Part shown: positions 18,618 through 40,079 of the stretch, piece after piece
How the letters are laid out: the number at the start of each line of letters is the position of its first letter
Position numbering within the stretch: the first letter of the stretch is position 1
From: Candidatus Omnitrophota bacterium
GTDB lineage: Bacteria > Omnitrophota > Omnitrophia > Omnitrophales > Aquincolibacteriaceae
Reading direction: 5' to 3'
DNA: 64,000 nucleotides
NCBI GenBank assembly: GCA_023247035.1
Contig: JAHFHG010000002.1
Span: forward strand, 12,090-76,089
Notes under the pieces: model-generated
The model's input: the letters and a program-made list of their open reading frames with translations, nothing else
Databases searched by the model: none
Told to the model about the DNA's origin: nothing
Program-made: the position numbers and the translations under genes

Positions 18618-18619
18618 AT

Positions 18620-19840: not shown

Positions 19841-19844
19841 GTCC

Positions 19845-20156: not shown

Positions 20157-20260
20157 AGCGCGGCCTTCCCAAGCGATCCGGCCTAAAAGTTTGACCTGTG
20201 AACCGCTCGACGAAGATTGGTTATTTGAAGGAAGGTTTTAGTTTCATCAATAAGGAAAAA

Positions 20261-20902: not shown

Positions 20903-20903
20903 A

Positions 20904-22739: not shown

Positions 22740-22745
22740 CCCGCC

Positions 22746-24158
22746 ATGAATGAAAATTTCCACGCGGTTTTGATTGCCGGCACGCATTCCAGCGCCGGCA
22801 AGACCACCTGGTCGCTCGCTTTAATGGCGCTGGCCCGGAAAAAAGGACTCACGGTGCAGCCCTTTAAGGCGGGCCCGGATTACATCGATCCGGGTTTCCA
22901 TCATGAAATTTGCTCTCCGCGGCGTTCAAGAAACCTCGACCTCTTTTTCCTTTCAAAAGAAAAAATATCCGAGAGTTTTCATAACCGCTCTCGGGATACC
23001 GGCCTCGCGATTGTGGAAGGAGTCATGGGACTTTATGACGGCAAAGGGCCGAGCGGTACCGAAGGAAGCAGCGCGGAACTGGCGAAGATTTTGAGGCTTC
23101 CGGTTCTGTTAGTGATCGACGGCTCGAAAATGGCCGGGAGCGCGGCGGCATTGGTTTCAGGATTTAAAAATTTTGATCCCGCAGTTCATTTGGCCGGTGT
23201 TTTGATCAATCGCGTGCGGCCGGGGCATTTCCATTTGCTCAAGCGGGCGATTGAACTTTCGACGGGGCTCCCGTGTCTTGGATTCCTGCCCGAGGAGGAA
23301 GCCTTTTCGATTCCCGAGAGGCATTTAGGATTGACCCCCGCCGCTGAGACGCAAAATTGGAAAGTGAAAATCGACCGGGCCGCCTCTTTTCTTGAAAAGA
23401 ATTTGGATTGGGATGCTTTCCTCCGGATTTCCACGATTCCAAGACCGCCTGCGCAAGCTCAGCCTAAGGAGAAGGTTGAAAGGAATAAGTCTTCCCAAGA
23501 ACCGGTTAAGATCGGCGTGGCGCGTGACGCCGCTTTTTCCTTTTATTATGAAGACAACTTGGATCTCCTCAACGAGCAGGGAGCGGAGATTCTTTTCTTT
23601 TCTCCCCTTAAGGATCCTGTTTTGCCCGAAGGCTTGGATTTCCTTTATCTGGGAGGCGGATTCCCTGAAATTTACGCCCAGGAGCTCGCCAAGAATGAAT
23701 CGATGATAAAATCCGTCCGGGATTTTTACGCCCGGGGCGGTTTTATTTACGGCGAATGCGGCGGGCTTATTTATTTGGCGGAGGCTTTCTGCGATTCAGA
23801 CGGAACGGAATATCCTTTATTGAAATTGCTGCCGGGAAAAATCGCGATGACCCGCCGGTTGCAGAATTTCGGATACCATGAAATAAAAACGCAAACCGAT
23901 ACTTTCCTATTTTCCAAAAATACGGCGCTTCGATCTCATGAATTCCATTATTCGATTTGGAATCAGGAAGGAAACGCCTCTCCGGCGTATCAGATCGGAG
24001 ACCGGCCGGAAGGTTTTGCGTCCGGGCGGATTTTTGCAAGTTATCAGCACTTGCATTTTGGTTTGGATTCCCGGATTTTAGCCCGGCTGTTTGAAAGTTT
24101 AAAGGCTTCCCAAGATCTTAATCGCGGCAAACAAATAAAAAAGGAGGAAAAACAATGA
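22746..24158 (+). CDS. cbiA: Cobyrinate a,c-diamide synthase (CbiA/CobB)
   Basis: N-terminus AVLIAGTHSSAGKTT and a C-terminal GATase1 domain with a conserved Cys (GECGG). Confidence 0.85.
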   Translation: MNENFHAVLIAGTHSSAGKTTWSLALMALARKKGLTVQPFKAGPDYIDPGFHHEICSPRRSRNLDLFFLSKEKISESFHNRSRDTGLAIVEGVMGLYDGKGPSGTEGSSAELAKILRLPVLLVIDGSKMAGSAAALVSGFKNFDPAVHLAGVLINRVRPGHFHLLKRAIELSTGLPCLGFLPEEEAFSIPERHLGLTPAAETQNWKVKIDRAASFLEKNLDWDAFLRISTIPRPPAQAQPKEKVERNKSSQEPVKIGVARDAAFSFYYEDNLDLLNEQGAEILFFSPLKDPVLPEGLDFLYLGGGFPEIYAQELAKNESMIKSVRDFYARGGFIYGECGGLIYLAEAFCDSDGTEYPLLKLLPGKIAMTRRLQNFGYHEIKTQTDTFLFSKNTALRSHEFHYSIWNQEGNASPAYQIGDRPEGFASGRIFASYQHLHFGLDSRILARLFESLKASQDLNRGKQIKKEEKQ

Positions 24159-24505
24159 AATCAAAACAGACGAAGGCGGTTTTCATTGCGCTGGTTTTGT
24201 CCCTCGGATTTATTTCTAACTTTCCGCTTGCGGCGCAGGCGGCGGGGGAGGGAACGACGGGGGATTATTTCGTCGATATCGGAACGAAGTTCGGCAGGGG
24301 CCTTTGGAACACGGTTTCAAGTCCGGCCGAGATCCCCTGCACGATCACGGCGGATATTCAAAATCAGGGGGGCGTCGGATTTTTCAGCGGTTTTGGAAAG
24401 GGAATCTTGTTTATGCTGCGCCGCATTCTTGTCGGAGTCACCGAAGTCGGCACGTTTATCATTCCGATGGGCGCGACGATTCCTGCTGTTTGCAGTTCGA
24501 AATAA
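24155..24505 (+). CDS. Small exported hypothetical protein
   Basis: Signal peptide MKSKQTKAVFIALVLSLGFISNFPLAAQA. Sits between cbiA and cobQ. Confidence 0.4.
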   Translation: MKSKQTKAVFIALVLSLGFISNFPLAAQAAGEGTTGDYFVDIGTKFGRGLWNTVSSPAEIPCTITADIQNQGGVGFFSGFGKGILFMLRRILVGVTEVGTFIIPMGATIPAVCSSK

Positions 24506-24511
24506 ATACGA

Positions 24512-26041
24512 ATGAAAAAAGCTAAAAGCTTGATGGTGCTCGGCACGGGTTCCGGCGTCGGCAAGTCCTTTGTGGCCGCAGGGCTCTGCCGTTTGCTTTC
24601 CAATTCCGGATTTCGCACGGCCCCTTTCAAGGCGCAAAATATGTCCAACAATTCTTACGTGACGGAGGAGGGCGGAGAAATCGGCCGGGCCCAGGCCGTG
24701 CAAGCGGAGTGCGCCCGGGTCACGCCTCATACGGATATGAATCCGGTGCTTTTAAAACCGGCCTCGGACAACGGCTCTCAAGTGATTTTGCAGGGAAAAT
24801 CGATCGGGCATTTTAAAGCCCGCGAATTTTATTCTCAAAGGGAACGGATCGCAAAGGCCATCCGCGAATCTTACGAACGCCTGTCCGCTTCTTATGAAAT
24901 GATTATCTTAGAAGGCGCGGGAAGCCCGGCGGAAATCAATCTGAAAAAAAATGACCTCGTCAATATGCCGATGGCCCGGCTTGCAGGCGCGCGCTGCATT
25001 CTTGTCGGCGACATTGACCGGGGCGGTGTTTTCGCTTCCCTGATCGGGACGCTGAGCCTGCTGGAGGCTGAGGAACAGGAACGGATCGCCGGATTTGTGA
25101 TCAATAAATTCCGCGGCGATTTCTCGCTTCTTGAAGACGGCCTAGACTTTTTAGAGGAGCGGACGGGAAAAAAAGTCTGGGGCGTGCTTCCTTACGATCG
25201 CGATTTGTGGATCGAGGAAGAGGACGCGCTTGCGGTGGAGAATACGAATTTTCGTGATCCAGATAAACAAAAACTTGATAAACTTGATATCGCCGTCATT
25301 TTGCTGCCGCGGCTTTCCAATTTTACGGATTTCGAAATCCTCAAACACGATCCTTCCGTTCAGCTCCGTTATATCAAAAAACCCGAAGAAGTGGGGGAGC
25401 CTGACCTTTTAATTTTGCCCGGCACGAAAGCGACGCTTGCCGACTTGGCGTACCTTAAGGAAAAGAGATTGGATACAAAGATTCTGGATTTTGCGGATCG
25501 AGGCGGCAGGATCCTCGGCATTTGCGGGGGCTATCAAATGATGGGAACGCGCCTTCGTGATCCGCACGGTTTTGAGGAAAGGAATCAAGGGGAAATCGAA
25601 GGCCTTAAGCTGTTTAAAATGGCCACGGAATTTTATCCTGAAAAGGTGTTGCGAAAGGCCGAAGATTTTGTCGATTCGGAAATTTTCGGCGCGCGCGTTT
25701 CGGGAAAACTGGAGTGTTACGAAATCCATATGGGGCAAAGCACGCTTGAAGAGTCTTATCAACCGTTCGGAACTTGCGGCGCTATCCATCCTTCAGGAAA
25801 AATATTGGGCACGTATTATCACGGATTATTCGACAGCGGGGAATTTCGCGAGTCCTTTTTGAATGCGCTCGCTCAAAGCGCGGGGAAGCGGAGAGCCGGC
25901 GGAGGGCATTTACAATCTGCAGGCCAACTCAAGGAAATTCATTATGAGCGTCTCAGCCGGCTTCTTTTGCAGCGCCTTAATCTGAATTTATTAAGCGAGG
26001 CGTTGGGGATTACGGAATTTCATGCGGTTCCTCAGGCGTAG
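24512..26041 (+). CDS. cobQ: Cobyric acid synthase
   Basis: SLMVLGTGSGVGKS start and a GATase-like C-terminus (ICGGYQMMG). Confidence 0.9.
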   Translation: MKKAKSLMVLGTGSGVGKSFVAAGLCRLLSNSGFRTAPFKAQNMSNNSYVTEEGGEIGRAQAVQAECARVTPHTDMNPVLLKPASDNGSQVILQGKSIGHFKAREFYSQRERIAKAIRESYERLSASYEMIILEGAGSPAEINLKKNDLVNMPMARLAGARCILVGDIDRGGVFASLIGTLSLLEAEEQERIAGFVINKFRGDFSLLEDGLDFLEERTGKKVWGVLPYDRDLWIEEEDALAVENTNFRDPDKQKLDKLDIAVILLPRLSNFTDFEILKHDPSVQLRYIKKPEEVGEPDLLILPGTKATLADLAYLKEKRLDTKILDFADRGGRILGICGGYQMMGTRLRDPHGFEERNQGEIEGLKLFKMATEFYPEKVLRKAEDFVDSEIFGARVSGKLECYEIHMGQSTLEESYQPFGTCGAIHPSGKILGTYYHGLFDSGEFRESFLNALAQSAGKRRAGGGHLQSAGQLKEIHYERLSRLLLQRLNLNLLSEALGITEFHAVPQA

Positions 26042-26118
26042 GGGTTGCAATGCCCCCCCTGCGATCAGCGCAACGAATGTATTGCAATTTAGGATTATTG
26101 TTTTATGATTTTTAATCT

Positions 26119-26529
26119 ATGCCGACGAAAAAAGACGCTTACCTGATTATCGCGCACGGGACCCGGGATCCGGAAGGCCGGCGCGCCTTCGGGGAATTTC
26201 TCGGAAAATTCCGGGCGGCTTATCCGCACCGGCATATCCAGGGCGCATTTTTAAGTATGGGCGAACCGACGGTCCCTCAAGCCGTTGAGCGCTGCGTCCA
26301 GGAAGGGGCCCGGCAAATTTTCGTCATTCCTCTTTTGTTTTTTTCCGGCCGGCACGCAAAGGAAGATATCCCCCGCCGCATTCAGGAGGCGAAAAGCACT
26401 TACCCCGAGATTGACTTTCATTATGCGAGTCCGCTCGCCGAAAATCCCAAGTTGTTTTCACTCTTGGAAGAAAAGATGAAGACCTTAACACAAGGTAAGA
26501 TGAAAGGCAAATGCACCAACGCGGTATAA
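26119..26529 (+). CDS. cbiX: Sirohydrochlorin cobaltochelatase, short form (CbiX-like)
   Basis: AYLIIAHGTRDPEGR ... FVIPLLFFSGRHAKEDI. Confidence 0.7.
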   Translation: MPTKKDAYLIIAHGTRDPEGRRAFGEFLGKFRAAYPHRHIQGAFLSMGEPTVPQAVERCVQEGARQIFVIPLLFFSGRHAKEDIPRRIQEAKSTYPEIDFHYASPLAENPKLFSLLEEKMKTLTQGKMKGKCTNAV

Positions 26530-26559
26530 AGCGATGAGTTCAACCGCTGGAGGTGCAAG

Positions 26560-27106
26560 ATGGAGTATTCAAACCCTTGAGAGGAAAATGTTGGATGAAG
26601 ACCTGGAGTTTTTAGAAGCTTTGAGGACGTTCGGTCTATGGGATCAGTTTTGGAGGAACTGAGAGAAAAGGATGAAGTCGGTAGAGGGTTTGAAGAGCGT
26701 TCCCGGGATCGGGAAATTCTTCGCGATGCCCATACGCCACGAGATTGAGGGCATCGATTGATTTCAGACATCCGATAAGCTTTGTGCTTATGCAGGATGG
26801 GTCTCCTCGACTTGCGGCATCATCAAGCAAGGGAATAAATGCTTACGGTGTGCGCTTATTGAAGCGGTGATTCCGGCCATTAGAGTCGATGCGCAGTTTA
26901 GAAGTTATTACGAATCCATGAAGGTGAAGAAAGGCGCCAACGCAGCGAAGGCGGCGACAGCAAGAAGACTGCTGAGAATCATTTGCCGGATTTGGAAAGA
27001 GAAAAGATTGTATCGAACACAATCACTTAATGGACCGCTCTCCTCACCTCCTAAAGGTCCCGGATTTATGGGGAGCGTTCTTGGACATAGGTTAGAGGAT
27101 CCGTGA
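26560..27106 (+). mobile_element. IS110-family transposase remnant: C-terminal Transposase_20 region only, with at least one frameshift; the DEDD N-terminal domain is absent
   Basis: LKSVPGIGKFFAMPIRHEIEGID then, after a frameshift, FQTSDKLCAYAGW...GANAAKAATARRLLRIICRIWKE; typical IS110/IS116/IS902 C-terminus. Confidence 0.6.
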
Positions 27107-27247
27107 ATCGGATTTTACGATGTGCGGCGCTGATGCGGGCACGAATAGAAGGATGATCAGCTTTTATGAGGGGATCAAAGCAACAAAAGCCAATGCAGCC
27201 CCTTAAAAAATAATCTTGCATTTGGCTTTCATAGAAGGAGACAAGGC

Positions 27248-27442
27248 ATGAGCGAATCGAAAAAACCAAAATATGAACCTCCGAAAGTTTACCGCGTTGT
27301 GCTGAACCACGATCAGGCGATCCTTTCGGGCTGCTCCACAGGGACGACGAGTATTTCCAACACGACCGGCGCGAATTGTAATACCAGCTGCCGCCGAAGC
27401 ACGTCCACCGCGACCAGTTCCAACTCATCGGCTTCCTCGTAA
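27248..27442 (+). CDS. Candidate RiPP precursor peptide (64 aa; leader MSESKKPKYEPPKVYRVVLNHDQAIL, core rich in Ser/Thr/Asn/Gly with 3 Cys)
   Basis: AAGGAG Shine-Dalgarno 7 nt upstream. Stop lies 8 nt before the kinase gene. Low-complexity STNC core. Confidence 0.5.
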   Translation: MSESKKPKYEPPKVYRVVLNHDQAILSGCSTGTTSISNTTGANCNTSCRRSTSTATSSNSSASS

Positions 27443-27450
27443 AACCGGCG

Positions 27451-28326
27451 ATGCGGAATAAACGCTTTGAGATCGCCAATATTCCGTTTAGTTTCCTTCA
27501 CGATTCCTTTCATATTACCGACTGGCCGAACCCTTTTTATTTCCCGTTTCAAACTCAGAAGCCCGAGTTGATCAGGATACAAACCCGCCGCCTGAGAAAT
27601 ATTCCCTCCCGCGCTTCTTTTTCTGACCTGCGCTTCGACGGCGGTGCGCATTGGCGCCTTTTCGAGAATCACGGGCAATTCGAAGTCCATCTTTTCGATC
27701 CCAAAACCAAAGCGCACGACCGGACGGCGCGTATCTCGCCTGATTTTACGGAAGTGGAGCTGATCCATTGGAAAAAGTCTCATTTCCTGAACTGGATCCT
27801 GCGTCCGCTTGCCGAGATTCTGCTCGTCCATTATCTTGCGTCCCGGGAAGGTTTGCTGGTTCACGCAGCGGCGGTGCGGGACGGCGATCAGGCCTATCTT
27901 TTCGTGGGCCGCTCCGGCGCCGGAAAAACCACGATTTCAACGTTTTGGGCCGGCGTCGAGGGCGACGTTTCTGTTTTGGGAGACGAGCGGCTCGTGGTGC
28001 GGCGCGAGGCCGGCGAATGGTTTGCGTACGGCACTCCCTGGCCGGGAATGGGTTTCCGCTGCAACAATGAACGCGTGCGGATCAGCCGCGTTTTTTTTAT
28101 CCGCCACGGGAGTGAGCATGAAATCATCGAGCAGGGTCCCGCCCTTTATTTTAATGAATTGTTCACGCAGGTTTTTTCCTCTTTTTGGAACCTTGAGGCG
28201 CTCGATCAAATCACGCGGACTTGCCAGAAAGCTGTGGAGGAAATTCCCTGCCGCCTGCTGGCCTTCGCGAAAGCGCCGGATGTGACCGGGTTTGTCAGGA
28301 ATTTTAACTGCGCCGCGCAGCCTTAA
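27451..28326 (+). CDS. HprK-related P-loop serine kinase-like protein
   Basis: AYLFVGRSGAGKTTIS...VLGDERLVV parallels the HprK C-terminal kinase core (Walker A plus acidic motif). Confidence 0.6.
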   Translation: MRNKRFEIANIPFSFLHDSFHITDWPNPFYFPFQTQKPELIRIQTRRLRNIPSRASFSDLRFDGGAHWRLFENHGQFEVHLFDPKTKAHDRTARISPDFTEVELIHWKKSHFLNWILRPLAEILLVHYLASREGLLVHAAAVRDGDQAYLFVGRSGAGKTTISTFWAGVEGDVSVLGDERLVVRREAGEWFAYGTPWPGMGFRCNNERVRISRVFFIRHGSEHEIIEQGPALYFNELFTQVFSSFWNLEALDQITRTCQKAVEEIPCRLLAFAKAPDVTGFVRNFNCAAQP

Positions 28327-28334
28327 ATCCGCTT

Positions 28335-29378
28335 ATGGAAAATTTGCCGCAGGTTTCCGTTCATGAGTTCAATGACCGTCTCCGCGCCCGCGCAAAAGAG
28401 CTGCGGATCCCGTTTCAGGCCTCGCTGGAATTGACCTATGCCTGCAACTTTCGCTGCGTCCATTGTTTTAATCCGCACCACGAATCGAAGGACGACCTTG
28501 GAACCGAATTTTGGAAATCCGTTCTTGGCCAGCTTGCCGGCGAGGGCTGTCTCGTCGCGCTTTTTACCGGCGGCGAGCCGCTCGTGCGCAAAGATCTTTT
28601 TGATCTGCTCGCTCACGCCCGCAATTTGGGAATGCAGTGTATTCTCAACACCAACGGCCTTCTGCTCGATCCGGAAAAAATCCAGAGGCTCGAGGAATCG
28701 GGTCTGACCTTGCTGGCGGTTTCCGTTTTCGGGATGAGCGTTCAAAGTTACGAATCGGTGACCCGCATCCCCGGATCGTTCGCGCGCTTTTTGCTCCACG
28801 TGGAGCAGCTCAGGCGGTCCCGAATCCCGCTCCTTTTTAAAATGCCGGTGATGCAAATGAATTACCAGGAAGTGGAATACGCCAAGGATTGGTTTTCAAG
28901 CCGGGGACTTCTCCTCAAACACACTTCGGAGATCCAGCCTCGCGCGGACGGCGATCCGGAACCTTTGCAGCACCGTATTTCAAGCGCCCAAGCAGCGGAT
29001 TTGAGATTCCGTTACGAAGAAGATTTAGGATGCGGAAAACGAAGCCCCCGGAAAGATGAATTTTTTGATTGCCAATGCGGGAAAAGCGCGGTCGCCATTA
29101 CCCCGCGCGGCGAAATGAATCTGTGCGTCTCTTTCCATTATCCGCGCCACTCGCTTTTAAAAGGAAGTGTCCGGGAGGGCTGGAAAAGGCTTGTGGATTT
29201 TGCGGCAGATTTCAAACCCTCCGAAAAATACGAGTGCCCGGGCTGCCGGTTGTCTCCTTACTGCTCGCGCGGCGCAATGGATTCGTGGCTGAATACGGGC
29301 GATTTCAATCCGTGCGTCCCTTACTTTAAGGAAGTCGCAGGCCGGATTGAAGGCGCCCTGAAAAAAAGGAGTGAATGA
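28335..29378 (+). CDS. Radical SAM enzyme with a C-terminal SPASM domain (peptide-modifying maturase class)
   Basis: TYACNFRCVHCFN (CxxxCxxC) near the N-terminus. C-terminal CQCG...CPGCRLSPYC auxiliary-cluster Cys pattern. Confidence 0.8.
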   Translation: MENLPQVSVHEFNDRLRARAKELRIPFQASLELTYACNFRCVHCFNPHHESKDDLGTEFWKSVLGQLAGEGCLVALFTGGEPLVRKDLFDLLAHARNLGMQCILNTNGLLLDPEKIQRLEESGLTLLAVSVFGMSVQSYESVTRIPGSFARFLLHVEQLRRSRIPLLFKMPVMQMNYQEVEYAKDWFSSRGLLLKHTSEIQPRADGDPEPLQHRISSAQAADLRFRYEEDLGCGKRSPRKDEFFDCQCGKSAVAITPRGEMNLCVSFHYPRHSLLKGSVREGWKRLVDFAADFKPSEKYECPGCRLSPYCSRGAMDSWLNTGDFNPCVPYFKEVAGRIEGALKKRSE

Positions 29379-29385
29379 AGAAAGT

Positions 29386-29850
29386 TTAGGGCGGGCTTCC
29401 GGAATGCAATCGCCTTAAAATCCGCGAAGGCGCGTCGAGAAACCAGGGATTGGTCGGTGAAAGGAGGGCCTGCCAAAAGCGAAGAAGGAACGGCCGTTTT
29501 TCCAGGTCGAAAATTTTTTCTCCTCTTTGAACCTGCGTGATCTTTCCCACCAGCGGAGAAATTCCGGCGCGTCCTTTGAAGAAAGGGACAAAACAGGTGT
29601 TCGCATGAAAATTTTCACCGGATATTTTTCTCACCGCGACATCGCCGAATCGAAGGCTCGATTCGTCTGTTTTCTTGATCGTAACGAGGTCGCCCCGGCG
29701 CACCACCGGCCACATGCAATTTCCAAAGAGTTTCATTTGAACGGAGCCGGAAAATTCCAATTCCGAAAGAAGAATCGAGGCCTGCAGGGGTTGGGAAAGG
29801 GCCTTTTCTTCAAGAGGCGGATTAAGGGACGGCACGGCCAAATTTAGCAC
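29386..29850 (-). CDS. S24/S26-like (LexA/signal-peptidase fold) peptidase with Cys in place of the nucleophile Ser
   Basis: GNCMWPVVRRGDLVTIKK ... FGDVAVRKI mirrors G(D/N)SMxP...GDlvlV...GDivVaK of S24 peptidases. Convergent with the rSAM gene, gap 8 nt. Confidence 0.5.
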   Translation of the reverse strand: MLNLAVPSLNPPLEEKALSQPLQASILLSELEFSGSVQMKLFGNCMWPVVRRGDLVTIKKTDESSLRFGDVAVRKISGENFHANTCFVPFFKGRAGISPLVGKITQVQRGEKIFDLEKRPFLLRFWQALLSPTNPWFLDAPSRILRRLHSGSPP

Positions 29851-30020
29851 GGCGGAGCCGGCTTCCGCAACGGATCTTTTGCCTTCGCCGGATTTTCAAT
29901 TCTTTCTAACATTCAGGATCATTTTCAGTCTTCGGCTCAAAAGCGCATTCTGCGCATTTGATCTTACAAAACGAACCGCTATAATTAATGAAACACGGGC
30001 GGCAGGAAATCGAACCCTTC

Positions 30021-33000
30021 ATGAAAACCATCTCTTTATTCCAGAAACCCAGCGCGATTTTTTTAATCTTTTCTTTAAGCCTTTCCCAAAGTCCCTCGTA
30101 TGCCGCTGCCGCGCCGGCGCCTCCGCTGGCGGTTTCTGAGCGCTCCCGGGCGCTTCTTTTTCTTCCCGAAGAACTTGGCGAGATCGAAGAATCCTTTCAG
30201 GGATCGAACGGAAAAACCGTGATCTTCATTCAAGACGCCCACGATTCCCTCGAAGCGCAGGAAAATATCGCCAAGACTATTCAATACCTGGTGGACAAGT
30301 ACGGGGTGAAGACTGTTTTTGAAGAAGGCTATGAAGGTCCTGTTCCCACGGATGATTATTTCGGCTTCATCAAAGATCCGTCCGTCAAAGAGAAAGTTTC
30401 TTACTTTTTATTAGATAAACTCCGCCTCGGCGGCGCGGAATACGCACACATCAACCGCTTTCACAACTTGTCATTCCCGCACGCGTTAAGCGGGAATCCA
30501 AATTTTAGGTCCCCGATAGAAACATTCGGGGACGACAAAAAACGTGTCGATTTCAAACTGATTGGGGCAGACAATATAAAGTTACATCTTGAGAATATCG
30601 ATTGGTATCGCCAGAATGCCAAGCATAAAGAAGAAACTGGAAGAGATTTGACTATTCTGCAAAATGAAATCGACAAACTTGCCAACCGGTATTTTCCTAA
30701 GGAACTCAAAGAATGGATGAAGCTTAAGAAAAGGTTTGATGAGAAACAAATTGATCTTTTGGATTATTTAAAGCGGACAATACAAGTCCCTCATCGAGAA
30801 TCCATAGACCATAAACTTTACCCCAATCTTTCGCTTCTCCTTCAAGCAGAACACACTCAAGACAAAGAAGTCCTAGAGAAAGTGAAAACCATTGAAGCCA
30901 AGATTCTTTTCGAGGAAATCGATTCGTTGGAAAACGCCGCCGCCGGCCCATTCCTACAAAATGGAACAGACCGGAAAATCTTCCAATATTACAAAGGAAT
31001 AAATCTTCTCAAAAGACTCAACGAGATTGAGATTACGCCCGCTGAATATGAGGCGGTCAAAGCGCAGCTTCAACATCTCAGCACCCAGGAACTGGCCCAA
31101 TTTATTGTCCAGCAAACGAATAAATCCATCGTCCTTTCCAAACGATGGGAGGAAAATATTGAAAGCGCCATTCGGTTTTATCAAATCTCACGAGCCAGAG
31201 ATTCTGCGATTGCCGAGCGACTGAATGATTTTCTTAAAAATCATGATGAAAAAGTGGCTGTCCTTGTCTTTGGAGGATTTCATAAAGAGAGGATTACAGA
31301 ATTGTTGAGAAAGAAAGGACTCCCTTACTATATAGTTTCTCCTCGAATAATGAACGTCGACAATAAGCATAAGGAACTCTACGCGCATTTAATGACAAAG
31401 GGATATTCGCTTTTCCCCGTTGCGGCAAATGTTGCTAAGGCAGCGCGTTTAGCAGGAGAGATCGAGCTCGCGGAAATGGGCGGCCAGAACGCAAAGTCAG
31501 AACTCCGAGCGTACCATGCGGCAATCACTAACATTGTTTCTTCATTGGTCTCCAATCGACCCAATCAAACATCTCGAGAACTGCTCGATCGTTTGATTAA
31601 CGGACGATTGATACACGAAGTTCTAAAAGTATCCAAACAAGCAATGGGAAAACGCCGATCCGAACTAAGAAGTAAAGAATCGGATTTTGCTTTAAGAGAA
31701 AAACGCCGTGATTATCTCAAGCGGCTAATGAATCAAGAAAATAAGCAATGGACGTTGGATGAGTTAGCAAACGCTACAGGTCAATCAACAGGACAGATTG
31801 TTAAGGATTTGCGATATTTGAATCTTTTTAAGCCCTCAAATCACCTAAATTTAGATGCCGAACGCATAGACCGAAGAAGACAGTGGGGATTACCAGATTA
31901 TTCTGACCTCGATAAGCTTTTACCTCGCTTGGATGAAGAATTTGCATATCTTCATGGAGAGGCTCTTTTTAATTTTTTAGCTCAAAAAGGCCGCGAGAAT
32001 GACCCCGTAAGCATGGAAGCGGCTATTTACGGCTTCTATAAATTTGTTGGAGAAAAAACCCCCGGTAATATTTCAGAACGAGGGCGATTGCTTGGTGAAC
32101 GCATTTATCACTATCTGAGGTTAAGAGAAAGTATGCCTTCTGACGGCCTGCGTCGAAATCCAGATGTTGAGTTCGATATTGGTATGGCAGAAAAAAGGAA
32201 GCGGGAGTCACGGCTTCCAAAATTTGGAAATATAAAAACAAGGAGGCCGAAGAAGAAAGTTTCTTTTTCGGAAGCACAGCAAATTATGGAAGAAAAAAAT
32301 TTACATTTAGATCAATCAATCGCATTCGTTGCGTTGTCCACGGCAGAAAATGAAACTTTATTTCGAGCGCTTAAATCAAGCGAATTGGAAGAGTCCGAGC
32401 GAAGACAAATTTATGATTATTTGATTCAGAAGCATGTAGGGTTTGTCGGCTGGTGGATCAAACATAAGATGCCGCCTTGGTATTTTGAACATTTTAACTT
32501 CGAAGAACTTTTAGCTTTTGGCCAAATTGGCCTTATGAAAACGATTGAAAGATATGATTTCAAAATGGGGCGGCGCTTTACCAGTTATGCCGAATGGTGG
32601 ATTCGCCATTCTATCCAACGCTCCATAGAGAAAAAAACACATAAATCTTTAAATGTCAGGCGTGATGAGGATAGCCCGGAGTGGATTGATACTTTGTCGG
32701 ATTCAAAAGATCAATCGGAAGAAGAATTATGGCCGGAACTATTTTCCAGTCTTAGGCATCTCGATAGTCGGTCTCGCATTATGTTGAGCTTGCGTTACGG
32801 GATTGGATCAGTAAGAACATACAATCTTCGAGAAATTGGCTTAATGTTTGGTGTAACTCACGAGCGTGTTAGACAAATTACAGAAAGAGCAGTTGAAAAG
32901 TTAAAACGCTTGGTTGGAAAAGTAACGGTTGATGATTCTTCTCAAGACCATACCGATGTTTTTTTATTCGAGGCTATGGAGTTAGAGCCAGAGAATCCAC

Positions 33001-36000
33001 TTTTCAAGCCACTAAGCCATCTCGGAGTTAAAAAGCTTGACCGGATTCGAGAAGTTCTTTCAAAAGAAAATCGCTTCAACTCGGAAATGCTGATGAGGAT
33101 TTTTAGGTCACGCGGCCAGTATGTGATAGCTCCATCGAAATATTTATGGGGTCTGCCTGCGGGTTTGCTTGAAACCGGCGGTGACACTTCCCATCATTTT
33201 GGATCGTGGAATGAAGAAGGTGGAAGACATAACATAGATTTACAAAAACCCAAAAAGATTCATTTTTCCAACGCACTCACAACCACAACCGAAATCATAA
33301 AAAGGTATCCTTATGCTCGGTATCTACTGCCTCCTGAAGAACAACTATTGCTGGCCTCTCAGGCTCAAGGAGAAAGGAGCCGATTCTATGCTTTGGGTAA
33401 GACATTGCAGTGGATTGGACTTTCTCCGCAAGATTTTATTATTTGGCTTGTTGAAAATAAAAAATATTTAGATCAAGAAATCGTTGATTTTATCGCACAA
33501 TCACCACTTTCTAAACGTCCTCGATACGAGCTAACGGCATCCCGCACAGGTGAGCATCTTCATGGGTCTTTACCAAGACCACGTACTGACCGAAAGATTG
33601 CAACGAAATGGATTTCAACTGAAGAAACCAGCTACACGCTAATCACACCTGCTGAATTGGCGGACCGCTTCCCTTCTGCCGAACCCTTCTTGGATAAACT
33701 CGAACCTCAATTACTTCTTGAGGCGGATTCGTCCGAGCATGATGAAATTAAATACTATTCTTTTGTTGAAGATGGACATCATACAAAAATTCTAATAAGG
33801 ATCAATAAAAGAACCGGCGAAATCCAAAGTCCTCATGATGGCCCAATCGGTTTTAGAAAGGAAATTTTGGATTTTGTAAGAAAAGGTGAGTTTGGCAATA
33901 AGCAAAAGCCTCCTGTTACCGCGCCTTTTGAAATGCACGCCGGATCACGGCATTTTATTTATTTCGGAACGATGGGGAAAGGTTCCATTGGCTTGAGTAT
34001 GAAGGGAGTGAAACCTAACACGCGTGTATCAGGAAGCGCTGTTCATTTGGAGCATGCTCCTCTTGGAATGGGGCCGCAATGGCTTTTAAGACTCACTGTT
34101 CATTTGAAAAGACCAAGAGTTGTTTATGCGAGATTCAAACGCTCTGGAACCCGCTTAGGTTTATTTAAAAAATCCCCTCAAACTTATATCGGAGCTTTTG
34201 TCAAACTTGGGAAATGGAATCAGGAAAAAATCCAGCCATTCCCTGAAAATGAAATCGAAATTACCGCGAGTTCCAAAGGACGTTTGGAACTTGGAAGCAA
34301 TGGCGATGGAGAGCGGATTGTTATTCACTTACCACTTTTACCCAAAGATCATAAAGTTTTAATTCGAAAAGTCCGCAATCAAGAAGATGGACAACAGCTC
34401 TTGGTCGTTCATACCCGCAATCCTGCTTATCGATATAGAAAATTTTATTATCGATTCACGAATCGTGGCTATCACACCCGAAGATACCACGAGGAAGTAA
34501 AGGACATAAGTCCCACGGCTAGAAGGAAGCTTAGCTATGAAGAAATTGCAAAGGCACAAGAAGATTTGAGAAGCCGAGAAGGAGCAGAGGCAAACTTATG
34601 GCGCGATCCCGAAAAGATTGCTTATGAGCTTGACCTATTCGACGCTTATTATCTTGTTTCGGAAGTTCAAAGAATAAACGCTTCTTTAGTTGCTCAAGAC
34701 ACAGCTAATTTGCCGCCTCTCGAAATAGACACCTCAAAGATTGTTGAGCTGCCGACTCCGGCTTACGATCAAGTAGGAGACGTTTATCATGCTGTTCCAG
34801 AATCTTCTGAGCGACCGGAGAAATCCGAGAAACCAGTCAAACCTAAACCATTATCCCCTTTAAGACTTGCTCAAAAAAGATTGGAAGAAGCTGAAAAAAA
34901 AACATTAGCTGAACGTTTGAAGGTTGGCTTTCGAGATGTGGGAGAAAGCGGTCGGTTTTTAGATTTGGGCGCAGGAAAGGGTGATTTAACCGCTGAACTT
35001 GCTGGACAATTTCAAGGTGGGGTTGCAGTCGAAATAAATGAAGATCGAGTCGAGCAGCTACGGCAGAGAAAAATTCCAAATCTTAATATTTGGGACATGG
35101 ATTTTTTTGATTATATGGAGATGGCGATTAAAGGGAATCAGCTTTTTGATGCGATTCTCATTTCACATGCTCTTTTATTCATTAAATTTGATCGCCGGGA
35201 CGCTTTCTTAAAAGATGTTCTATCAAGACTTAAGCCGAATGGAAAATTAGCGATTATTTTAAATGGCAGTAAAATTGAAGAGAGAAACCAAGTTCAGTTG
35301 CGAGCAAAGCTCATGAGAAAGCATGAGGCGCTAGCAGGAGACAACCCATCAACCAATATTGAAAGCAAACTGCGACAAATCGGCTATGGGGTACAAACCG
35401 AAAGAGTCAGAATCATTCATGAGACTCCTTCCAGAGACGAAATGATTTCTATTGTAAAAGCAATATTGCCACGCGAAGACCGTTTTCGTCTGTCGAATAT
35501 CACTGGATTTGTCGATTCAGTCCTGAAATTACCTGGAGAAGAAAAGTACCGCCTCTATGTTGATCAAGATATTTTATGGATAACACATCCTCGTTCTGAG
35601 GTTAGAAAGCAAGAAAATGTATTTGCAATGGTGTCTGTCAACGATTGGCAAAACTTTAATCGAACTAATCAGAATACCGAGGCTACGGCCACCAAAGCCG
35701 TCGTTTTTATAGATGGTTCCGTCGATAGCAAAGATGCCAAGCAGCGGGCGGAAGAATTAGCGGTGCTGGCCGCAGGTAATCCGAACCGAACGATTGTGGT
35801 TTATAATGCGGACAAAGTTTTTAAAAATAAAGGCGGTGAAATGGCGGAACTTTTAAAGTCGTTTGGTCTCGCCAATGTCAAGTTCGCTGCGGGTGAGTTG
35901 TCCGAAGCCCTCAAGCCCTACCAATTCCGGGATCAAGTTGATTTGGTGCACTACTCGGCAAGCGAAGAGGAGGCTGTTTTTGTTCAAGCCTCCGTTGGGA

Positions 36001-36209
36001 AATGGCTGGCGCAAAAACTGACCCGATTTGTCGGAGGGCCCGGCGCCTTAGGATACGGAATAAAATATTTGCAGGCTGTGAAATTGGGCAAGCCTGTGGA
36101 AGGTATCACGCCCGAGAACGGCTACTACGCCGTTTCCCCAGGCGCTTCGGAGTGGATGCGAAGCCTTTATCGAGCTCGGTTCGCGACCGTTTTCGCTCAA
36201 GCGGCGTGA
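30021..36209 (+). CDS. Giant multidomain protein (about 2060 aa): signal-peptide-like N-terminus, TraB/GumN/TIKI-like domain, sigma-70 region 2 plus region 4 module, central unknown region, class I SAM-methyltransferase motif, unknown C-terminus
   Basis: Uninterrupted 6.2 kb frame in AT-rich DNA. Motifs IFIQDAHDS...VLVFGGFHKERITELLRKKGLPYYIV; GQIGLMKTIERYDFKMGRRFTSYAEWWIRHSIQRSI; LREIGLMFGVTHERVRQITERAVEKL; FLDLGAGKGDLT. Confidence 0.7.
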   Translation: MKTISLFQKPSAIFLIFSLSLSQSPSYAAAAPAPPLAVSERSRALLFLPEELGEIEESFQGSNGKTVIFIQDAHDSLEAQENIAKTIQYLVDKYGVKTVFEEGYEGPVPTDDYFGFIKDPSVKEKVSYFLLDKLRLGGAEYAHINRFHNLSFPHALSGNPNFRSPIETFGDDKKRVDFKLIGADNIKLHLENIDWYRQNAKHKEETGRDLTILQNEIDKLANRYFPKELKEWMKLKKRFDEKQIDLLDYLKRTIQVPHRESIDHKLYPNLSLLLQAEHTQDKEVLEKVKTIEAKILFEEIDSLENAAAGPFLQNGTDRKIFQYYKGINLLKRLNEIEITPAEYEAVKAQLQHLSTQELAQFIVQQTNKSIVLSKRWEENIESAIRFYQISRARDSAIAERLNDFLKNHDEKVAVLVFGGFHKERITELLRKKGLPYYIVSPRIMNVDNKHKELYAHLMTKGYSLFPVAANVAKAARLAGEIELAEMGGQNAKSELRAYHAAITNIVSSLVSNRPNQTSRELLDRLINGRLIHEVLKVSKQAMGKRRSELRSKESDFALREKRRDYLKRLMNQENKQWTLDELANATGQSTGQIVKDLRYLNLFKPSNHLNLDAERIDRRRQWGLPDYSDLDKLLPRLDEEFAYLHGEALFNFLAQKGRENDPVSMEAAIYGFYKFVGEKTPGNISERGRLLGERIYHYLRLRESMPSDGLRRNPDVEFDIGMAEKRKRESRLPKFGNIKTRRPKKKVSFSEAQQIMEEKNLHLDQSIAFVALSTAENETLFRALKSSELEESERRQIYDYLIQKHVGFVGWWIKHKMPPWYFEHFNFEELLAFGQIGLMKTIERYDFKMGRRFTSYAEWWIRHSIQRSIEKKTHKSLNVRRDEDSPEWIDTLSDSKDQSEEELWPELFSSLRHLDSRSRIMLSLRYGIGSVRTYNLREIGLMFGVTHERVRQITERAVEKLKRLVGKVTVDDSSQDHTDVFLFEAMELEPENPLFKPLSHLGVKKLDRIREVLSKENRFNSEMLMRIFRSRGQYVIAPSKYLWGLPAGLLETGGDTSHHFGSWNEEGGRHNIDLQKPKKIHFSNALTTTTEIIKRYPYARYLLPPEEQLLLASQAQGERSRFYALGKTLQWIGLSPQDFIIWLVENKKYLDQEIVDFIAQSPLSKRPRYELTASRTGEHLHGSLPRPRTDRKIATKWISTEETSYTLITPAELADRFPSAEPFLDKLEPQLLLEADSSEHDEIKYYSFVEDGHHTKILIRINKRTGEIQSPHDGPIGFRKEILDFVRKGEFGNKQKPPVTAPFEMHAGSRHFIYFGTMGKGSIGLSMKGVKPNTRVSGSAVHLEHAPLGMGPQWLLRLTVHLKRPRVVYARFKRSGTRLGLFKKSPQTYIGAFVKLGKWNQEKIQPFPENEIEITASSKGRLELGSNGDGERIVIHLPLLPKDHKVLIRKVRNQEDGQQLLVVHTRNPAYRYRKFYYRFTNRGYHTRRYHEEVKDISPTARRKLSYEEIAKAQEDLRSREGAEANLWRDPEKIAYELDLFDAYYLVSEVQRINASLVAQDTANLPPLEIDTSKIVELPTPAYDQVGDVYHAVPESSERPEKSEKPVKPKPLSPLRLAQKRLEEAEKKTLAERLKVGFRDVGESGRFLDLGAGKGDLTAELAGQFQGGVAVEINEDRVEQLRQRKIPNLNIWDMDFFDYMEMAIKGNQLFDAILISHALLFIKFDRRDAFLKDVLSRLKPNGKLAIILNGSKIEERNQVQLRAKLMRKHEALAGDNPSTNIESKLRQIGYGVQTERVRIIHETPSRDEMISIVKAILPREDRFRLSNITGFVDSVLKLPGEEKYRLYVDQDILWITHPRSEVRKQENVFAMVSVNDWQNFNRTNQNTEATATKAVVFIDGSVDSKDAKQRAEELAVLAAGNPNRTIVVYNADKVFKNKGGEMAELLKSFGLANVKFAAGELSEALKPYQFRDQVDLVHYSASEEEAVFVQASVGKWLAQKLTRFVGGPGALGYGIKYLQAVKLGKPVEGITPENGYYAVSPGASEWMRSLYRARFATVFAQAA
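30470..30536. repeat. Second copy of the double-hairpin unit, located inside the coding sequence of the giant ORF (read through in frame)
   Basis: TTGTCATTCCCGC...GCGGGAATCC...GTCCCCGATAGAAACATTCGGGGACGAC aligns with 14389-14445. Confidence 0.5.
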
Positions 36210-36270
36210 GGAGTTCAATCGAGAAAAAAAGTTTTGAATTCGGAATGCGTGTTCAGAATCGCGGCCGTAT

Positions 36271-36696
36271 CTAATTCAACTTCACGACGTCGCTGACGCG
36301 GTCGCGGTGAATCTTCACAATGAAGGCCCCTGCGGCGAGGCGAGGCTCGATCGTGCGTTCCGTGATTTTATCCACGTAGGGAAGATACCCTTTGTAGTAA
36401 ACAAAATACCAGTCCTGCGAAACGTTCTGCTCAATCGTGCGGATTTCCTGCGGCTGCCCCAAAAGACTCAGGACCTCGTTAGCGCTTTTGCCTTTGAGGA
36501 ACAACTTTCCATTGGCGATGATCCGCCGGTTGGTCATTTGATCCCTGCCGAACTGGTCGCCTCCCTTGAAAAAGGTGTAGGGCTTCTCCTGCAGGGGCTG
36601 CCAAATCCCGATGCCCGCGCAGCCGCTTAAAAATAAAACAAAACAAAAAAGCAAAAGGGAATGCAGAACTTGTAGATTCGAAATTGGGGTCTTCAT
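36271..36696 (-). CDS. Small lipoprotein, hypothetical
   Basis: Lipobox LFLSGCAG after a hydrophobic signal. Confidence 0.5.
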   Translation of the reverse strand: MKTPISNLQVLHSLLLFCFVLFLSGCAGIGIWQPLQEKPYTFFKGGDQFGRDQMTNRRIIANGKLFLKGKSANEVLSLLGQPQEIRTIEQNVSQDWYFVYYKGYLPYVDKITERTIEPRLAAGAFIVKIHRDRVSDVVKLN

Positions 36697-36841
36697 TTTT
36701 ACTGCTAAGCATATCGGCGTTTTTGAGGAGGCCTTAAATCAGATCCCGCGCCCCAGCCGTCCGTTTATTCTGCTAGACGCTTGCCTGAGGCGCTTGATAT
36801 GATTGATCCTTGAACATTCAAGGATCGCTTCAGAGAGGCCT

Positions 36842-38914
36842 ATGAGTTCTCATCATCCGGATCCCGCCAACCGTTTGGCGAAAGAAAAAAGCCCTTACCT
36901 TCTCCAGCACGCCCAAAATCCCGTAGATTGGTATCCGTGGTCGGAAGAGGCCTTCGAAAAAGCAAAGCGCGAGGGCAAGATGATCTTCCTTTCCATCGGC
37001 TATTCGACCTGCCACTGGTGCCACGTGATGGAACACGAATCCTTCGAGAATCGGGAAATCGCCGCGCTCTTGAACCGGCATTTTGTCTCGATCAAAGTCG
37101 ACCGCGAAGAAAGGCCCGATATCGACCAGATTTATATGACCGCGATCCAGACGATGACCGGATCGGGAGGCTGGCCGCTGACCGCATTCCTGACTCCGGA
37201 AGGCCGGCCGGTCACCGGCGGGACCTATTTTCCTCCCGAGGACAAGTGGGGCCGGATGGGAATGAAAACCCTCCTGCCGCGGCTCGCTCAAATGTGGGAA
37301 GAAAAACGCCGGGAAATGGAAACGGCCGGAGAGCAGCTGGCGGGAATCCTTCAATCCCAGCCCTCCCCGTCTTCTCCAATGATCCTGAGTGAAGAAATTT
37401 TTACCGTCGCGCACGGCCAGTTTGCGGCAAGCTTCGATCCCGAGCACGGCGGCTTCGGAAAGGCGCCCAAGTTTCCCCGCCCGCACGATTTGTCCTTCCT
37501 TCTCCGCTATTGGAAAAGGACTTCCGGCGCGCGCGAACTTGAAATGGTGAAGACGACTTTAAATCAGATGGCCCAAGGCGGGATTTACGATCACCTCGGC
37601 GGCGGATTCCACCGCTATTCCACGGACGAGGCCTGGCTCGTCCCTCATTTTGAAAAGATGCTTTACGATCAGGCGCTTCTGGCCCGGACCTACCTTGAGG
37701 CGTACCAGGCGGCGCGAATCCCGGAATACGCGGACGTGGCGCGCGATATTTTCAATTATGTCCAGCGGGATATGACGGCTCCGGAAGGCGGATTCTATTC
37801 CGCCGAAGACGCGGACAGCGAAGGCGAAGAGGGGAAGTTTTACGTCTGGCGCCCGGAAGAAATCCGGAAAATCTTGGGCGAAGAAGACGGGAAAATTTTC
37901 AATGAATTTTATGGAATCACGGACGCCGGGAATTTTGAGCACGGGATGTCCATCCTGCACCTCACTCAGCGCATTCCGGAATTCGCGGCGCAAAAAGGGA
38001 TACCGGTTGAGGAACTGAAAAGAAAACTCGTCGAGGGCCGGCGGAAACTTTTTGAATCCCGCCGCAGAAGAATCCCGCCGCATAAGGACGATAAAATCCT
38101 CACGGCCTGGAACGGGTTAATGATTTCTGCGCTGGCGCTCGGGGCGCAAATCTTAGATGAGCCTTCTTATTCCGCAAGCGCCGGCCGGGCCGCGGATTTT
38201 ATCCTTACAAGCCTCCAGCGCGGAGGAAGGCTTTGGCGCCGCTTCCGCCAAGGCGAGGCTGCGGTCCCGGCGTTTCAGGAGGATTACGCCTTTTTTGCCT
38301 TGGGCCTCCTTGATCTTTATCAGGCCACTTTTGAAATCAAATGGTTTGAAGAGGCGAAACGGCTGACGGAAGACATGATCCGTTTTTTCTGGGATGAAAA
38401 AGCCGGCGGATTTTTTTACACGGCATCAGACAGCGAACCTTTGATCGCCCGGATGAAGGAATATTACGACGGGGCCGTCCCTTCCGGGAATTCCATCGCC
38501 GCCCTTTTGCTTTTAAGATTGAGCCACATGACGGGCGGAAGCTCTTTGCGGGAAACGGCCGAAAAAATTTTTCATTCCAACGCCCAGGCCCTGGAAAAAT
38601 ATCCGATGGCTTTTCCTCAGTTCTTGATCGCGGTCGATTTTGCGCTCGGCCCGGCGCGGGAGATTGTTTTGGCGGGAAAAAAAGACTCCCCGGATTTTCA
38701 AAATTATCTGCGGCTGCTGCGGAGCCGTTTTGAACCGCGCCAGGTCGTCTTGCATCATCCGGAAGATGAAACGGCCGGGAGGATCGAAAATTTGGCGGGT
38801 TTTATCAAGGATCAGATTGCTCCGGCGGGCAGGACCGCGGTTTATGTCTGCCGGAACCGGACGTGCCGGCGGCCGGCCGCGACACTCCAAGAGCTTGAGA
38901 AGATATTATCGTAA
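36842..38914 (+). CDS. Thioredoxin-domain protein of the DUF255 / YyaL (spermatogenesis-associated protein 20-like) family, with a C-terminal six-hairpin glycosidase-like region
   Basis: [17 protein letters not shown]...[16 protein letters not shown]. Confidence 0.8.
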
Positions 38915-38945
38915 ACCCATTTTGAATAACTCCGGCGGCCGATAG

Positions 38946-40079
38946 ATGAAAATACAAGATTTTCCCGATCAAAAATTTGACGCCATTGTCTTGGGAACGG
39001 GAATTGCCGGACTGGCCGCTGCGATCTCGCTGGCGCGCCGCCGGCAAAAAGTCCTCATGATCGGCAAAAAAAATCTGGCGGGCGAGGCCTCTCCGGCCGC
39101 GGCGGGAATTTTGGATCCTTTTCTCGAAATGACTCCCGGCCATCCGCTTTTTAAATTAAGCCGCGAGGCTTTTTTCCGTTATCCGGCCTGGCTTAGGCAT
39201 CTGCGGAAGTTTACAAAAAAGGATTTGGGTTATGCCCGGCCCGGAATGCTTTACGTTGCTTTCAACCGCCGCGAGGAATCAGAATTGAGGAGGCGTTTCG
39301 CGTGGCAGCGCAAAAGCGGGATTCCCGTGATCCGGAAATCGCGTCCGGAAATTCTCAGGAGCGAGCCGCACCTTAACCGGCAAGCCCGCAGCGGTCTTTT
39401 ATATCCGACAATCGGGCGGATTAAGCCGCGCGCTTTTTTGAAGGTTCTTTTCCGCTTCGCAAAGCGCCGCGGCGTTGGAATTCTGAACACAAGGCAGGAT
39501 GCCCGCCTGCTCACGCTTCGAAACCATGTCCGTGGAGTCCAAGTGGATTCTTCGGTATACTTGTCTCCCGTTGTCATTAACGCGACCGGAGCCTGGGCGG
39601 GCAAAAATCCTTACTTAGGGATGAAGCCTCCTATTCTCCCGGCCCGAGGACAGGCGCTTGTCGTGAAGGCAAAAAAAATCACACAAAGGATCCTGCACGG
39701 CCTGGCGGGATTTTATATTGTTCCCTGGGGAAAGAATGCTTATCTTCTGGGTTCCACCGTTGAATTTTCCGGCTTCAAAGCCCGGACAACGCGGGAAGGG
39801 ATCAAAAAAATCAAGGAAGGAGCCGAAAAACTGATTCCGGCGCTGCGGGATTTTAAAGCCGTCAACCGCTGGGCGGGCCTGCGTCCTTTTTCCAAAGACG
39901 GTTTGCCCTGGATCGGCCCTACGCGAATGGGCGGCCTTTATTGGGCGCTGGGTTTTTACCGGAGCGGAATCTTGATGAGCGGTTATATCGGAGAGCTTAT
40001 GGCCGACGGAATTCTTTCGGGGAAGTGGCCGGCAATCTTAAAGCCGTTTGATCCAAGGCGGCTTTCTCGGGGAACGTAA
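38946..40079 (+). CDS. FAD-dependent oxidoreductase (DAO family; glycine oxidase ThiO-like)
   Basis: FDAIVLGTGIAGLAAAISLARRRQKVLMIGKK dinucleotide-binding motif. Confidence 0.7.
   Translation: MKIQDFPDQKFDAIVLGTGIAGLAAAISLARRRQKVLMIGKKNLAGEASPAAAGILDPFLEMTPGHPLFKLSREAFFRYPAWLRHLRKFTKKDLGYARPGMLYVAFNRREESELRRRFAWQRKSGIPVIRKSRPEILRSEPHLNRQARSGLLYPTIGRIKPRAFLKVLFRFAKRRGVGILNTRQDARLLTLRNHVRGVQVDSSVYLSPVVINATGAWAGKNPYLGMKPPILPARGQALVVKAKKITQRILHGLAGFYIVPWGKNAYLLGSTVEFSGFKARTTREGIKKIKEGAEKLIPALRDFKAVNRWAGLRPFSKDGLPWIGPTRMGGLYWALGFYRSGILMSGYIGELMADGILSGKWPAILKPFDPRRLSRGT

Follow-up and report, generated by a model that had tools for sequence, protein, structure and literature searches.

A compositional mosaic within a giant modular gene of a Candidatus Omnitrophota bacterium

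Classical mosaic genes of bacteria, for example those that encode penicillin-binding proteins in Streptococcus pneumoniae and Neisseria, are products of homologous recombination between species. Polymorphic toxin, Rhs and contact-dependent inhibition (CDI) loci undergo C-terminal displacement, and the tips they acquire often have a deviating G+C content (GC). In the MARTX toxin of Vibrio vulnificus, a secreted protein of giant size encoded by rtxA1, the ends are conserved and the effector modules between them are shuffled by recombination at homologous sequences or short repeats (PMC12777771), while Rickettsia palindromic elements and other MITEs (miniature inverted-repeat transposable elements) occur as in-frame insertions in bacterial coding genes (PMC10969869). 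The subject here is a giant open reading frame (ORF) that lies in a 64,000-nt stretch of DNA, the window in what follows, from a Candidatus Omnitrophota bacterium (assembly GCA_023247035.1, contig JAHFHG010000002.1, positions 12,090-76,089, forward strand). With a probability of roughly 0.6, this ORF is a recombinant member of its protein family in which an interior of ~41% GC (GC at third codon positions, GC3, ~0.36) has come to lie, without a break in the frame, between ends that match the resident composition. Events of this kind are already known, and the mosaic adds one more to them; the protein family in which it occurs seems to be undescribed, and of the two it is the family that is the more interesting lead. 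The principal segments of the gene, in window coordinates, are as follows.

29988-36209, plus strand: giant ORF of 2073 aa, frame intact over 6.2 kb
29988-30458, plus strand: 5' segment of host composition, codons 1-157, GC3 ~0.57, codon-usage log-likelihood ratio (LLR) 0.232
30105-31487, plus strand: family-defining N-terminal domain (N-domain), aa ~40-500, EreA/ChaN/TIKI/TraB/RRSP-like fold
30159-30458, plus strand: most conserved block of the N-domain, aa 58-157, with motifs IQDAHDSLEAQEN, VFEEGYEGPVPTD and GGAEYAHINR
30470-30536, plus strand: MITE-like double hairpin of 67 nt, in frame, with imperfect terminal inverted repeats GTCATTCCCG...CGGGGACGAC
30537-35669, plus strand: AT-rich tract of non-host composition, GC 0.413, GC3 0.36, Karlin delta* 120.7
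30537-31187, plus strand: transition zone in the N-domain, codons 184-400, GC already low at 0.402, GC3 0.43, LLR intermediate at ~0
35688-36206, plus strand: conserved C-terminal module (C-module) of ~175 aa, KAVVFIDGS...TVFAQAA, of host composition

As in the penicillin-binding-protein mosaics, what appear to be foreign blocks lie in frame in a resident gene, the breakpoints fall in conserved sequence and the hallmarks of mobile elements are lacking. In those genes, however, donors and unrecombined alleles are known and the replacement is orthologous, whereas here the domain content differs, no donor or unrecombined parental allele was found and the evidence is compositional. Polymorphic toxin, Rhs and CDI loci likewise join a conserved N-terminal part to variable distal modules that are exchanged by recombination, but in the present gene both ends are conserved and it is the interior that varies; no toxin domain was detected in the giant protein, and neither an immunity gene nor an orphan cassette array in the neighbourhood of the gene. 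The closest analogue in behaviour is the MARTX gene, which also encodes a giant secreted protein with conserved ends and recombining interior modules. The likeness is one of architecture and evolution and does not extend to membership: the giant protein has no RTX or glycine-rich repeats by Pfam, no cysteine protease domain and no cysteine, its conserved handle is the EreA/ChaN/TIKI-like N-domain, the cargo is made up mostly of housekeeping-type enzyme domains together with a sigma-70-like region, the phylum is a different one, and secretion is predicted and processing hypothetical.

Composition and boundaries of the interior

Strongly AT-rich DNA occurs in the 64-kb window only inside the giant ORF. 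The GC of the tract is 0.413, against 0.511-0.516 for the flanks and the rest of the window, and windows of equal length (5.1 kb) placed outside the giant gene average 0.512 (sd 0.010) with a minimum of 0.493; in 2-kb windows the values are 0.41-0.43 at 31-36 kb and 0.48-0.56 elsewhere. An AT-rich middle between GC-normal ends had been noted by eye in a preliminary description of this DNA, and the sliding-window GC and codon-usage profiles bear it out, with a significant difference in place of a flat profile. The same description put both ends of the ORF above 50% GC, which holds for the 3' end (0.526 over 35670-36209) but is slightly too high for the 5' end (0.495 over 29988-30458 and 0.486 over 30021-30469).

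The difference is most pronounced at third codon positions. GC3 is 0.57 in codons 1-183, 0.36 in codons 184-1894 and 0.55 in codons 1895-2073, where the remaining 42 long ORFs of the window range from 0.50 to 0.67. A three-segment model of GC3 is better than a single rate by 25.8 log-likelihood (lnL) units, and when the two gene ends are each compared with the middle by Fisher tests, p is 7e-7 and 4e-7. Since the deficit sits at third positions and GC at first and second positions (GC1 and GC2) barely moves along the giant gene, the signal is one of silent sites; amino-acid composition is only modestly different. The Karlin dinucleotide signature, which is normalised for GC, separates tract and host by a distance of 120.7, whereas equally long segments of the host lie at 37.6±11.6 and at most at 61; the tract is thus about 7 SD away. 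Codon usage follows the same course, the LLR being +0.232 in codons 1-157 (host mean 0.225) and -0.23 to -0.27 in the core. The conserved parts of the tract, that is N-domain residues 184-500, the sigma-70 domains and the methyltransferase, equal its orphan parts in AT-richness.

The breakpoints can be localised within one intact frame. Maximum-likelihood GC3 change points fall at nt 30537 and nt 35670, within ~70 nt (5') and ~30 nt (3') of positions 30470 and 35700, at which the limits had been placed by eye. The 3' boundary is sharp (support interval 35607-35895), with the change at codon 1894 by GC3 and at codon 1900 by a codon-usage hidden Markov model; it matches the first conserved residues of the C-module (KAVVFIDGS, aa 1901) and lies 21-25 codons past an RSEVR motif. 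The 5' change point is the exact 3' end of the repeat copy at 30470-30536, and to this extent the proposal of the preliminary description that the transition sits at the repeat is upheld. The agreement concerns the point estimate, however, as the 2-lnL support interval (30480-31638) spans more than 1 kb and the hidden Markov model places the switch at 31188, beyond an intermediate zone of codons 184-400; the coincidence of boundary and repeat is suggestive. This junction falls within the conserved N-domain, just past the 67-nt element and the most conserved DNA block of the family. Both junctions sit in modules conserved across the protein family, with the breakpoints, at the N-domain block and at the start of the C-module, in sequence of the kind that recombining partners would have in common.

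The protein family and its modules

Further features of the giant gene belong to its cargo, its export and the motifs that punctuate it.

30021-30104, plus strand: putative Sec-type signal peptide MKTISLFQKPSAIFLIFSLSLSQSPSYA, with cleavage before A, inferred by reading the translation
31494-31508, plus strand: KSELR variant motif, aa 503
31656-31670, plus strand: RSELR motif, aa 557, after the N-domain
32415-32909, plus strand: sigma-70-like region (regions 2 and 4) in the AT-rich cargo
33075-34688, plus strand: region with ~120-aa repeats, PPF...PQW[LI]L, function unassigned, relatives only ~30% identical
34941-35270, plus strand: S-adenosylmethionine (SAM)-dependent methyltransferase domain in the AT-rich cargo
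35592-35606, plus strand: RSEVR motif, aa 1869, 21-25 codons upstream of the 3' change point

The closest 119 homologues of the giant protein all come from Omnitrophota and are 1.1-3.6 thousand amino acids (kaa) long. Only the first ~500 residues are common with the query; downstream of these the homologues carry diverse domains, including PEP-utilising, NUDIX, HAD, ROK, radical SAM, epimerase and methyltransferase domains among others. The family is one of Omnitrophota-specific, presumably secreted modular giants, made up of a signal peptide, the N-domain, a variable cargo, RSE[LVMA]R separators and, in some members, the C-module. It is apparently undescribed. Full-text literature searches and term look-ups in papers on giant Omnitrophota ORFs gave no mention of the family, its motif or compositional mosaics; those papers deal with proteins of at least 10 kaa or ORFs of more than 20 kb. 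An exact look-up of the giant protein returned no record.

The N-domain shares the fold of the EreA/ChaN/TIKI/TraB/RRSP superfamily, and at the sequence level His, Glu and Arg are invariant across 40 members in DAH, EEGYEG, AEYAH..R and GGFH. It falls short of membership in Pfam PF04187 (22.1 bits against a cut-off of 27.7, over aa 350-435 only), and NCBIfam gave no match for the domain and holds no model for the family. Only in the block at 30159-30458 does the gene reach 73-81% nucleotide identity with many members of the family, and judged by this similarity the block is a plausible crossover substrate. The C-module is common to two other members at 56-57% identity (P0003 and P0004) and to a third at 45% (P0013).

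Within the cargo, the sigma-70-like region exceeds the profile cut-offs for PF04542 (27.5 against 24 bits), PF04545 (39.9 against 24.1) and TIGR02937 (73.1 against 42.9), membership being assigned here from sequence profiles only. A stretch of ~650 aa separates this region from the methyltransferase, and of its relatives, all ~30% identical, several are parts of other giant proteins in which a sigma-like region and repeats likewise occur together. The ATG at 30021, ahead of the signal peptide, is the likely true start of the ORF, and homologues start aligning at about residue 10-20. The 2073-aa protein contains zero cysteine; across the family the median is 0.11%, compared with 1.0% in the window's other ORFs, and 17 of the 120 members lack the residue altogether. 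Such near-absence is unusual for proteins with cytoplasmic-type enzyme domains.

The RSE[LVMIA]R motif occurs 419 times in 111 of the 120 proteins where 2.5 occurrences are expected from composition (~170-fold), and has no copies in the 15.8 kaa of the window's other proteins. One copy stands just past the N-domain and the others follow at a median spacing of 344 aa, with flanks that are not conserved. The motif looks like inter-module punctuation or a processing site. In 346 instances from the family loci L001-L080 the first Arg is encoded by CGY in 82% (background 41%) and the Ser by TCN in 95% (background 69%), with codon use at the last Arg near background. This codon bias could reflect common descent of the copies or a role at the nucleotide level, for example as microhomology for module exchange.

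The modules also matter for composition. Across the family, 10 of 74 genes are mosaics in which GC3 varies between segments by 0.12 or more. Of 14 change points, 5 are no more than 10 codons away from an R[SA]E.R motif, against an expectation of 0.57 (P = 1.4e-4). Because change points cluster at the motifs, the modules between motifs act as compositional units, as would fit their exchange between lineages that differ in GC. L061, L045, L044, L019, L022 and L060 contain internal segments, 500-1,500 codons long, in which GC3 is off by 0.12-0.28 from the rest of the ORF, with successive values of 0.69/0.41/0.59 in L061 and 0.71/0.48/0.59 in L045; several of these breaks coincide exactly with an RSExR motif.

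A broader proposal, speculative and itself rather improbable, is that the mosaic is the footprint of cassette exchange in an Omnitrophota effector system of secreted, cysteine-free polyproteins. The TIKI/RRSP-like domain would be a protease that cuts at RSE[LVMA]R and frees the cargo, enzymes and sigma-like factors, into or onto a host cell, and the CGY-TCN-biased motif would provide the microhomology by which modules move between lineages of different GC. If the members are indeed processed effector polyproteins, the family gives a testable handle on the interaction of Omnitrophota with their hosts.

Origin of the interior

In the preferred explanation, the central 5.1 kb, comprising the distal two-thirds of the N-domain and one 1,300-aa cargo (sigma-70-like region, repeats and SAM methyltransferase), would derive from a lower-GC lineage. 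It would have entered by in-frame recombination between family members within the conserved end modules, with one crossover in or just past the most conserved N-domain DNA block and the other at the start of the conserved C-terminal module, and the promoter-proximal part and the C-module would have retained resident composition. The preliminary description offered foreign DNA captured in frame as one of two possibilities, and this is the one that fares better: non-host silent sites, the dinucleotide signature, host-like ends and junctions in conserved modules speak for it, although no donor or alternative allele was found. Its other possibility, acquisition of the whole gene followed by partial amelioration, is disfavoured as stated, since the ends are fully at host codon usage (LLR 0.232 against 0.225) and since amelioration, being gradual and gene-wide, would leave no step at a module boundary. 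The analysis shows the break in composition, where it falls among the modules, that separate assemblies reproduce it, that similar mosaics recur in the family and that members of low GC exist. The basis for a foreign origin of the core is its composition; that origin is inferred, as are the recombination mechanism and the direction, whether an interior replaced or ends converted by resident paralogues. So understood, the mosaic would be a clear case of import within a gene, in a phylum that is uncultured and probably depends on hosts, backed by independent assemblies, and these giant genes would evolve by swapping whole modules across lineages, beyond duplication and drift.

Several observations weigh against this explanation. 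The 5' boundary is graded over ~650 nt, and the dinucleotide signature depends in part on the codon-usage shift. The family has a small general deficit of GC3 in its cargo, so that some of the effect could be intrinsic. The searches brought up neither a donor nor a parental sequence: the whole protein and its middle were compared with 5.8 billion proteins, where the middle had no close homologue, residues 977-1640 with 1.84 billion representatives, and the middle by tblastn with phage and plasmid collections, which gave nothing. All that these searches returned for the cargo were generic sigma factors and relatives of the repeat domain at ~30% identity. In the two protein sets no relative of the cargo exceeds about 31-35% identity. 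Nor was an orthologous locus reached through homologues of the downstream neighbour, DUF255, whether on the contig from the same species, in a 79%-identity relative (L082, ERZ21828284), whose contig ends 302 nt upstream of that gene, or in relatives at 63-66% (L085 and L086), which have different genes upstream of it. Phylogenetic discordance of N-domain segments was rejected as evidence: the ranking of neighbours for aa 58-157 is not that for aa 184-490, but in control members of the family the two segments agree just as poorly, so that the controls are equally noisy.

The main competing account is intrinsic heterogeneity without transfer, in which a fast-evolving or weakly expressed cargo drifts AT-rich under a mutational bias uncountered by codon selection or biased gene conversion, while the end modules stay at genome composition. 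It retains this place because no donor was found, and it could draw as well on the graded 5' transition and on the orphan character of a cargo with remote relatives only. Across 53 family loci, moreover, cargo GC3 minus the GC3 of flanking genes averages -0.04±0.06, so that a slight deficit is usual; the value here is -0.23, which is ~3.3 SD past the family mean and the most extreme seen. Drift confined to a weakly constrained cargo also sits poorly with the equal AT-richness of ~300 well conserved N-domain codons and of the sigma-70 and methyltransferase domains, and with a 3' change that is a step at a module edge. Within the N-domain, GC3 of aa 58-157 minus that of aa 184-490 is 0.000±0.057 in 79 family loci against +0.133 here, a difference matched in size by 1 of the 79, and the step is therefore not a property of the family. 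The same family figure led to rejection of the idea that the conserved block is always GC-richer. Family members of low GC are uniformly low, the conserved block included. Taken on these terms, intrinsic heterogeneity is unlikely, if less so than the accounts that follow. One such low-GC member, among the closest relatives of N-domain residues 184-490 (P0007, locus L089), has GC 0.406 and GC3 0.36 throughout with flanks of 0.36-0.43, the same composition as the AT-rich tract, and makes it plausible that lineages of the donor type exist.

Three further assemblies, found by exact look-up of neighbouring proteins and assembled independently from different samples, carry the same allele at 99.6-99.97% identity to the window. 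The first (L083, ENA ERZ27276474, 17.8 kb) corresponds to window 18334-36092 at 99.92% identity and is continuous through both junctions. The second (L081, ENA ERZ27280021) corresponds to 34811-39102 at 99.58% and spans the 3' junction, and the third (L084, Logan SRR14366783) to 27212-30266 with one mismatch, including the first 279 nt of the giant ORF. L083 differs from the window at 8 positions over the 11.7 kb that precede the gene and at none across 29887-35929 (conditional p about 0.04, our own estimate from the counts), which is weakly consistent with a recent event. Seven substitutions are clustered in 22 nt of the C-module (35930-35951), 140 nt from the end of that contig; a paralogous module could have left this cluster by micro-conversion, or it could stem from mixing of paths in the assembly graph.

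Another account holds that the whole gene was imported from a low-GC lineage and its ends overwritten later by gene conversion from resident paralogues; it differs from the preferred one only in direction, and its own, smaller share of probability is counted together with that 0.6. This cluster and the patchy zone of codons 184-400 both resemble conversion tracts, family genes occur in several copies per genome (one metagenome-assembled genome, MAG, supplied several of the loci), and compared with L085 and L086 the giant gene lies where synteny breaks. Set against these points, there is no seam in composition from the flanks through the promoter-proximal DNA to the signal peptide, all of which are host-like, nor any tRNA, integrase or flanking repeats. 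Wholesale import with later conversion of both ends appears distinctly improbable. The chance that a metagenome assembler joined the contigs of two organisms through conserved family sequence is negligible: the DNA does come from a MAG, conserved blocks and numerous paralogues are features of the family, and related contigs often end near such genes (as do L082 and L083), but the locus is reproduced by three independent contigs from different samples, L083 crossing both junctions with native flanks, and is therefore not an assembly chimera, a conclusion in keeping with a frame intact over 6.2 kb, flanks alike in composition and conserved downstream synteny.

With interior replacement by recombination remaining the preferred reading, the giant gene was also compared with genomic islands and integrative elements, a classification that was rejected: the window shows no integrase or transposase and no tRNA boundary, the deviant tract is strictly intragenic and the neighbouring genes are of host composition.

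The repeat element and the surroundings of the gene

Related copies of the element at the 5' junction and a promoter-like site upstream of the gene complete the features considered.

14396-14445, plus strand: intergenic full copy of the MITE-like element, by sequence similarity
11196-11262 and 18675-18705: variant or truncated MITE-like copies, intergenic
29958-29985, plus strand: sigma-70-type promoter-like site TTGATC-16-TATAAT, 10/12 matches, by consensus match only

The double-hairpin repeat that the preliminary description had pointed out at 30470-30536 is real. It folds stably (ΔG -30.7 kcal/mol, z = -5.0) and is one of 4 related copies in 64 kb, three of them intergenic. Small, with terminal inverted repeats, a stable fold and multiple, mainly non-coding copies, the 67-nt element has the properties of a MITE; no clear target-site duplication is readable at its ends and no transposase is present in the window. 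Together with flanking residues (30459-30536) it accounts for ~26 aa that are extra relative to homologues, and in a structure model the stretch it encodes forms a surface loop, predicted with low confidence. The element is absent from 80 other Omnitrophota loci and, as far as can be seen from these and the window, appears host-specific.

The resemblance to Rickettsia palindromic elements lies in a short multi-copy palindrome with inverted-repeat ends that keeps the frame and adds a peptide loop at a tolerant position. The sequence family is an unrelated one, however, there are only 4 copies in 64 kb, and a link to the compositional junction is hypothetical. At that junction the element may represent the heterology at which exchange stopped, or a later, coincidental insertion that was tolerated.

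A longer intergenic repeat of ~120-150 nt (~80-89% identical in parts) occurs in two copies, at 11139-11292 and 18620-18736, each of which lies just 3' of an ORF end and embeds a variant or truncated MITE-like hairpin. At the N-terminus of a remote homologue of the cargo (P0264) stands VIPAQAGIH, a peptide of the sort that palindromic repeat elements typically encode when translated, and to judge from this peptide in-frame repeat insertions may be common in such giant proteins.

The promoter-like site stands directly upstream of the giant ORF, in DNA of host composition. The neighbouring genes, for cobalamin synthesis, a radical-SAM protein, DUF255, an oxidoreductase and cation efflux, are all of host composition, and no tRNA or Rfam match was found in the 64 kb. 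Downstream, from 36803 on, gene order is kept in L082, L085 and L086 at 63-79% protein identity, the conserved series comprising the DUF255 thioredoxin-like gene, an FAD oxidoreductase, cation efflux, a response regulator, a histidine kinase, PTS EIIA, CofD and others. Upstream of DUF255 all gene content differs from that of the relatives, and the giant gene therefore lies at a synteny breakpoint.

Further upstream, a region of ~1.4 kb between a CobQ-like gene and an ScmC-like ORF (26042-27450) is without a long ORF and gave nothing in an Rfam search; its GC is 0.46-0.49 and its GC skew is strongly positive, reaching 0.32.

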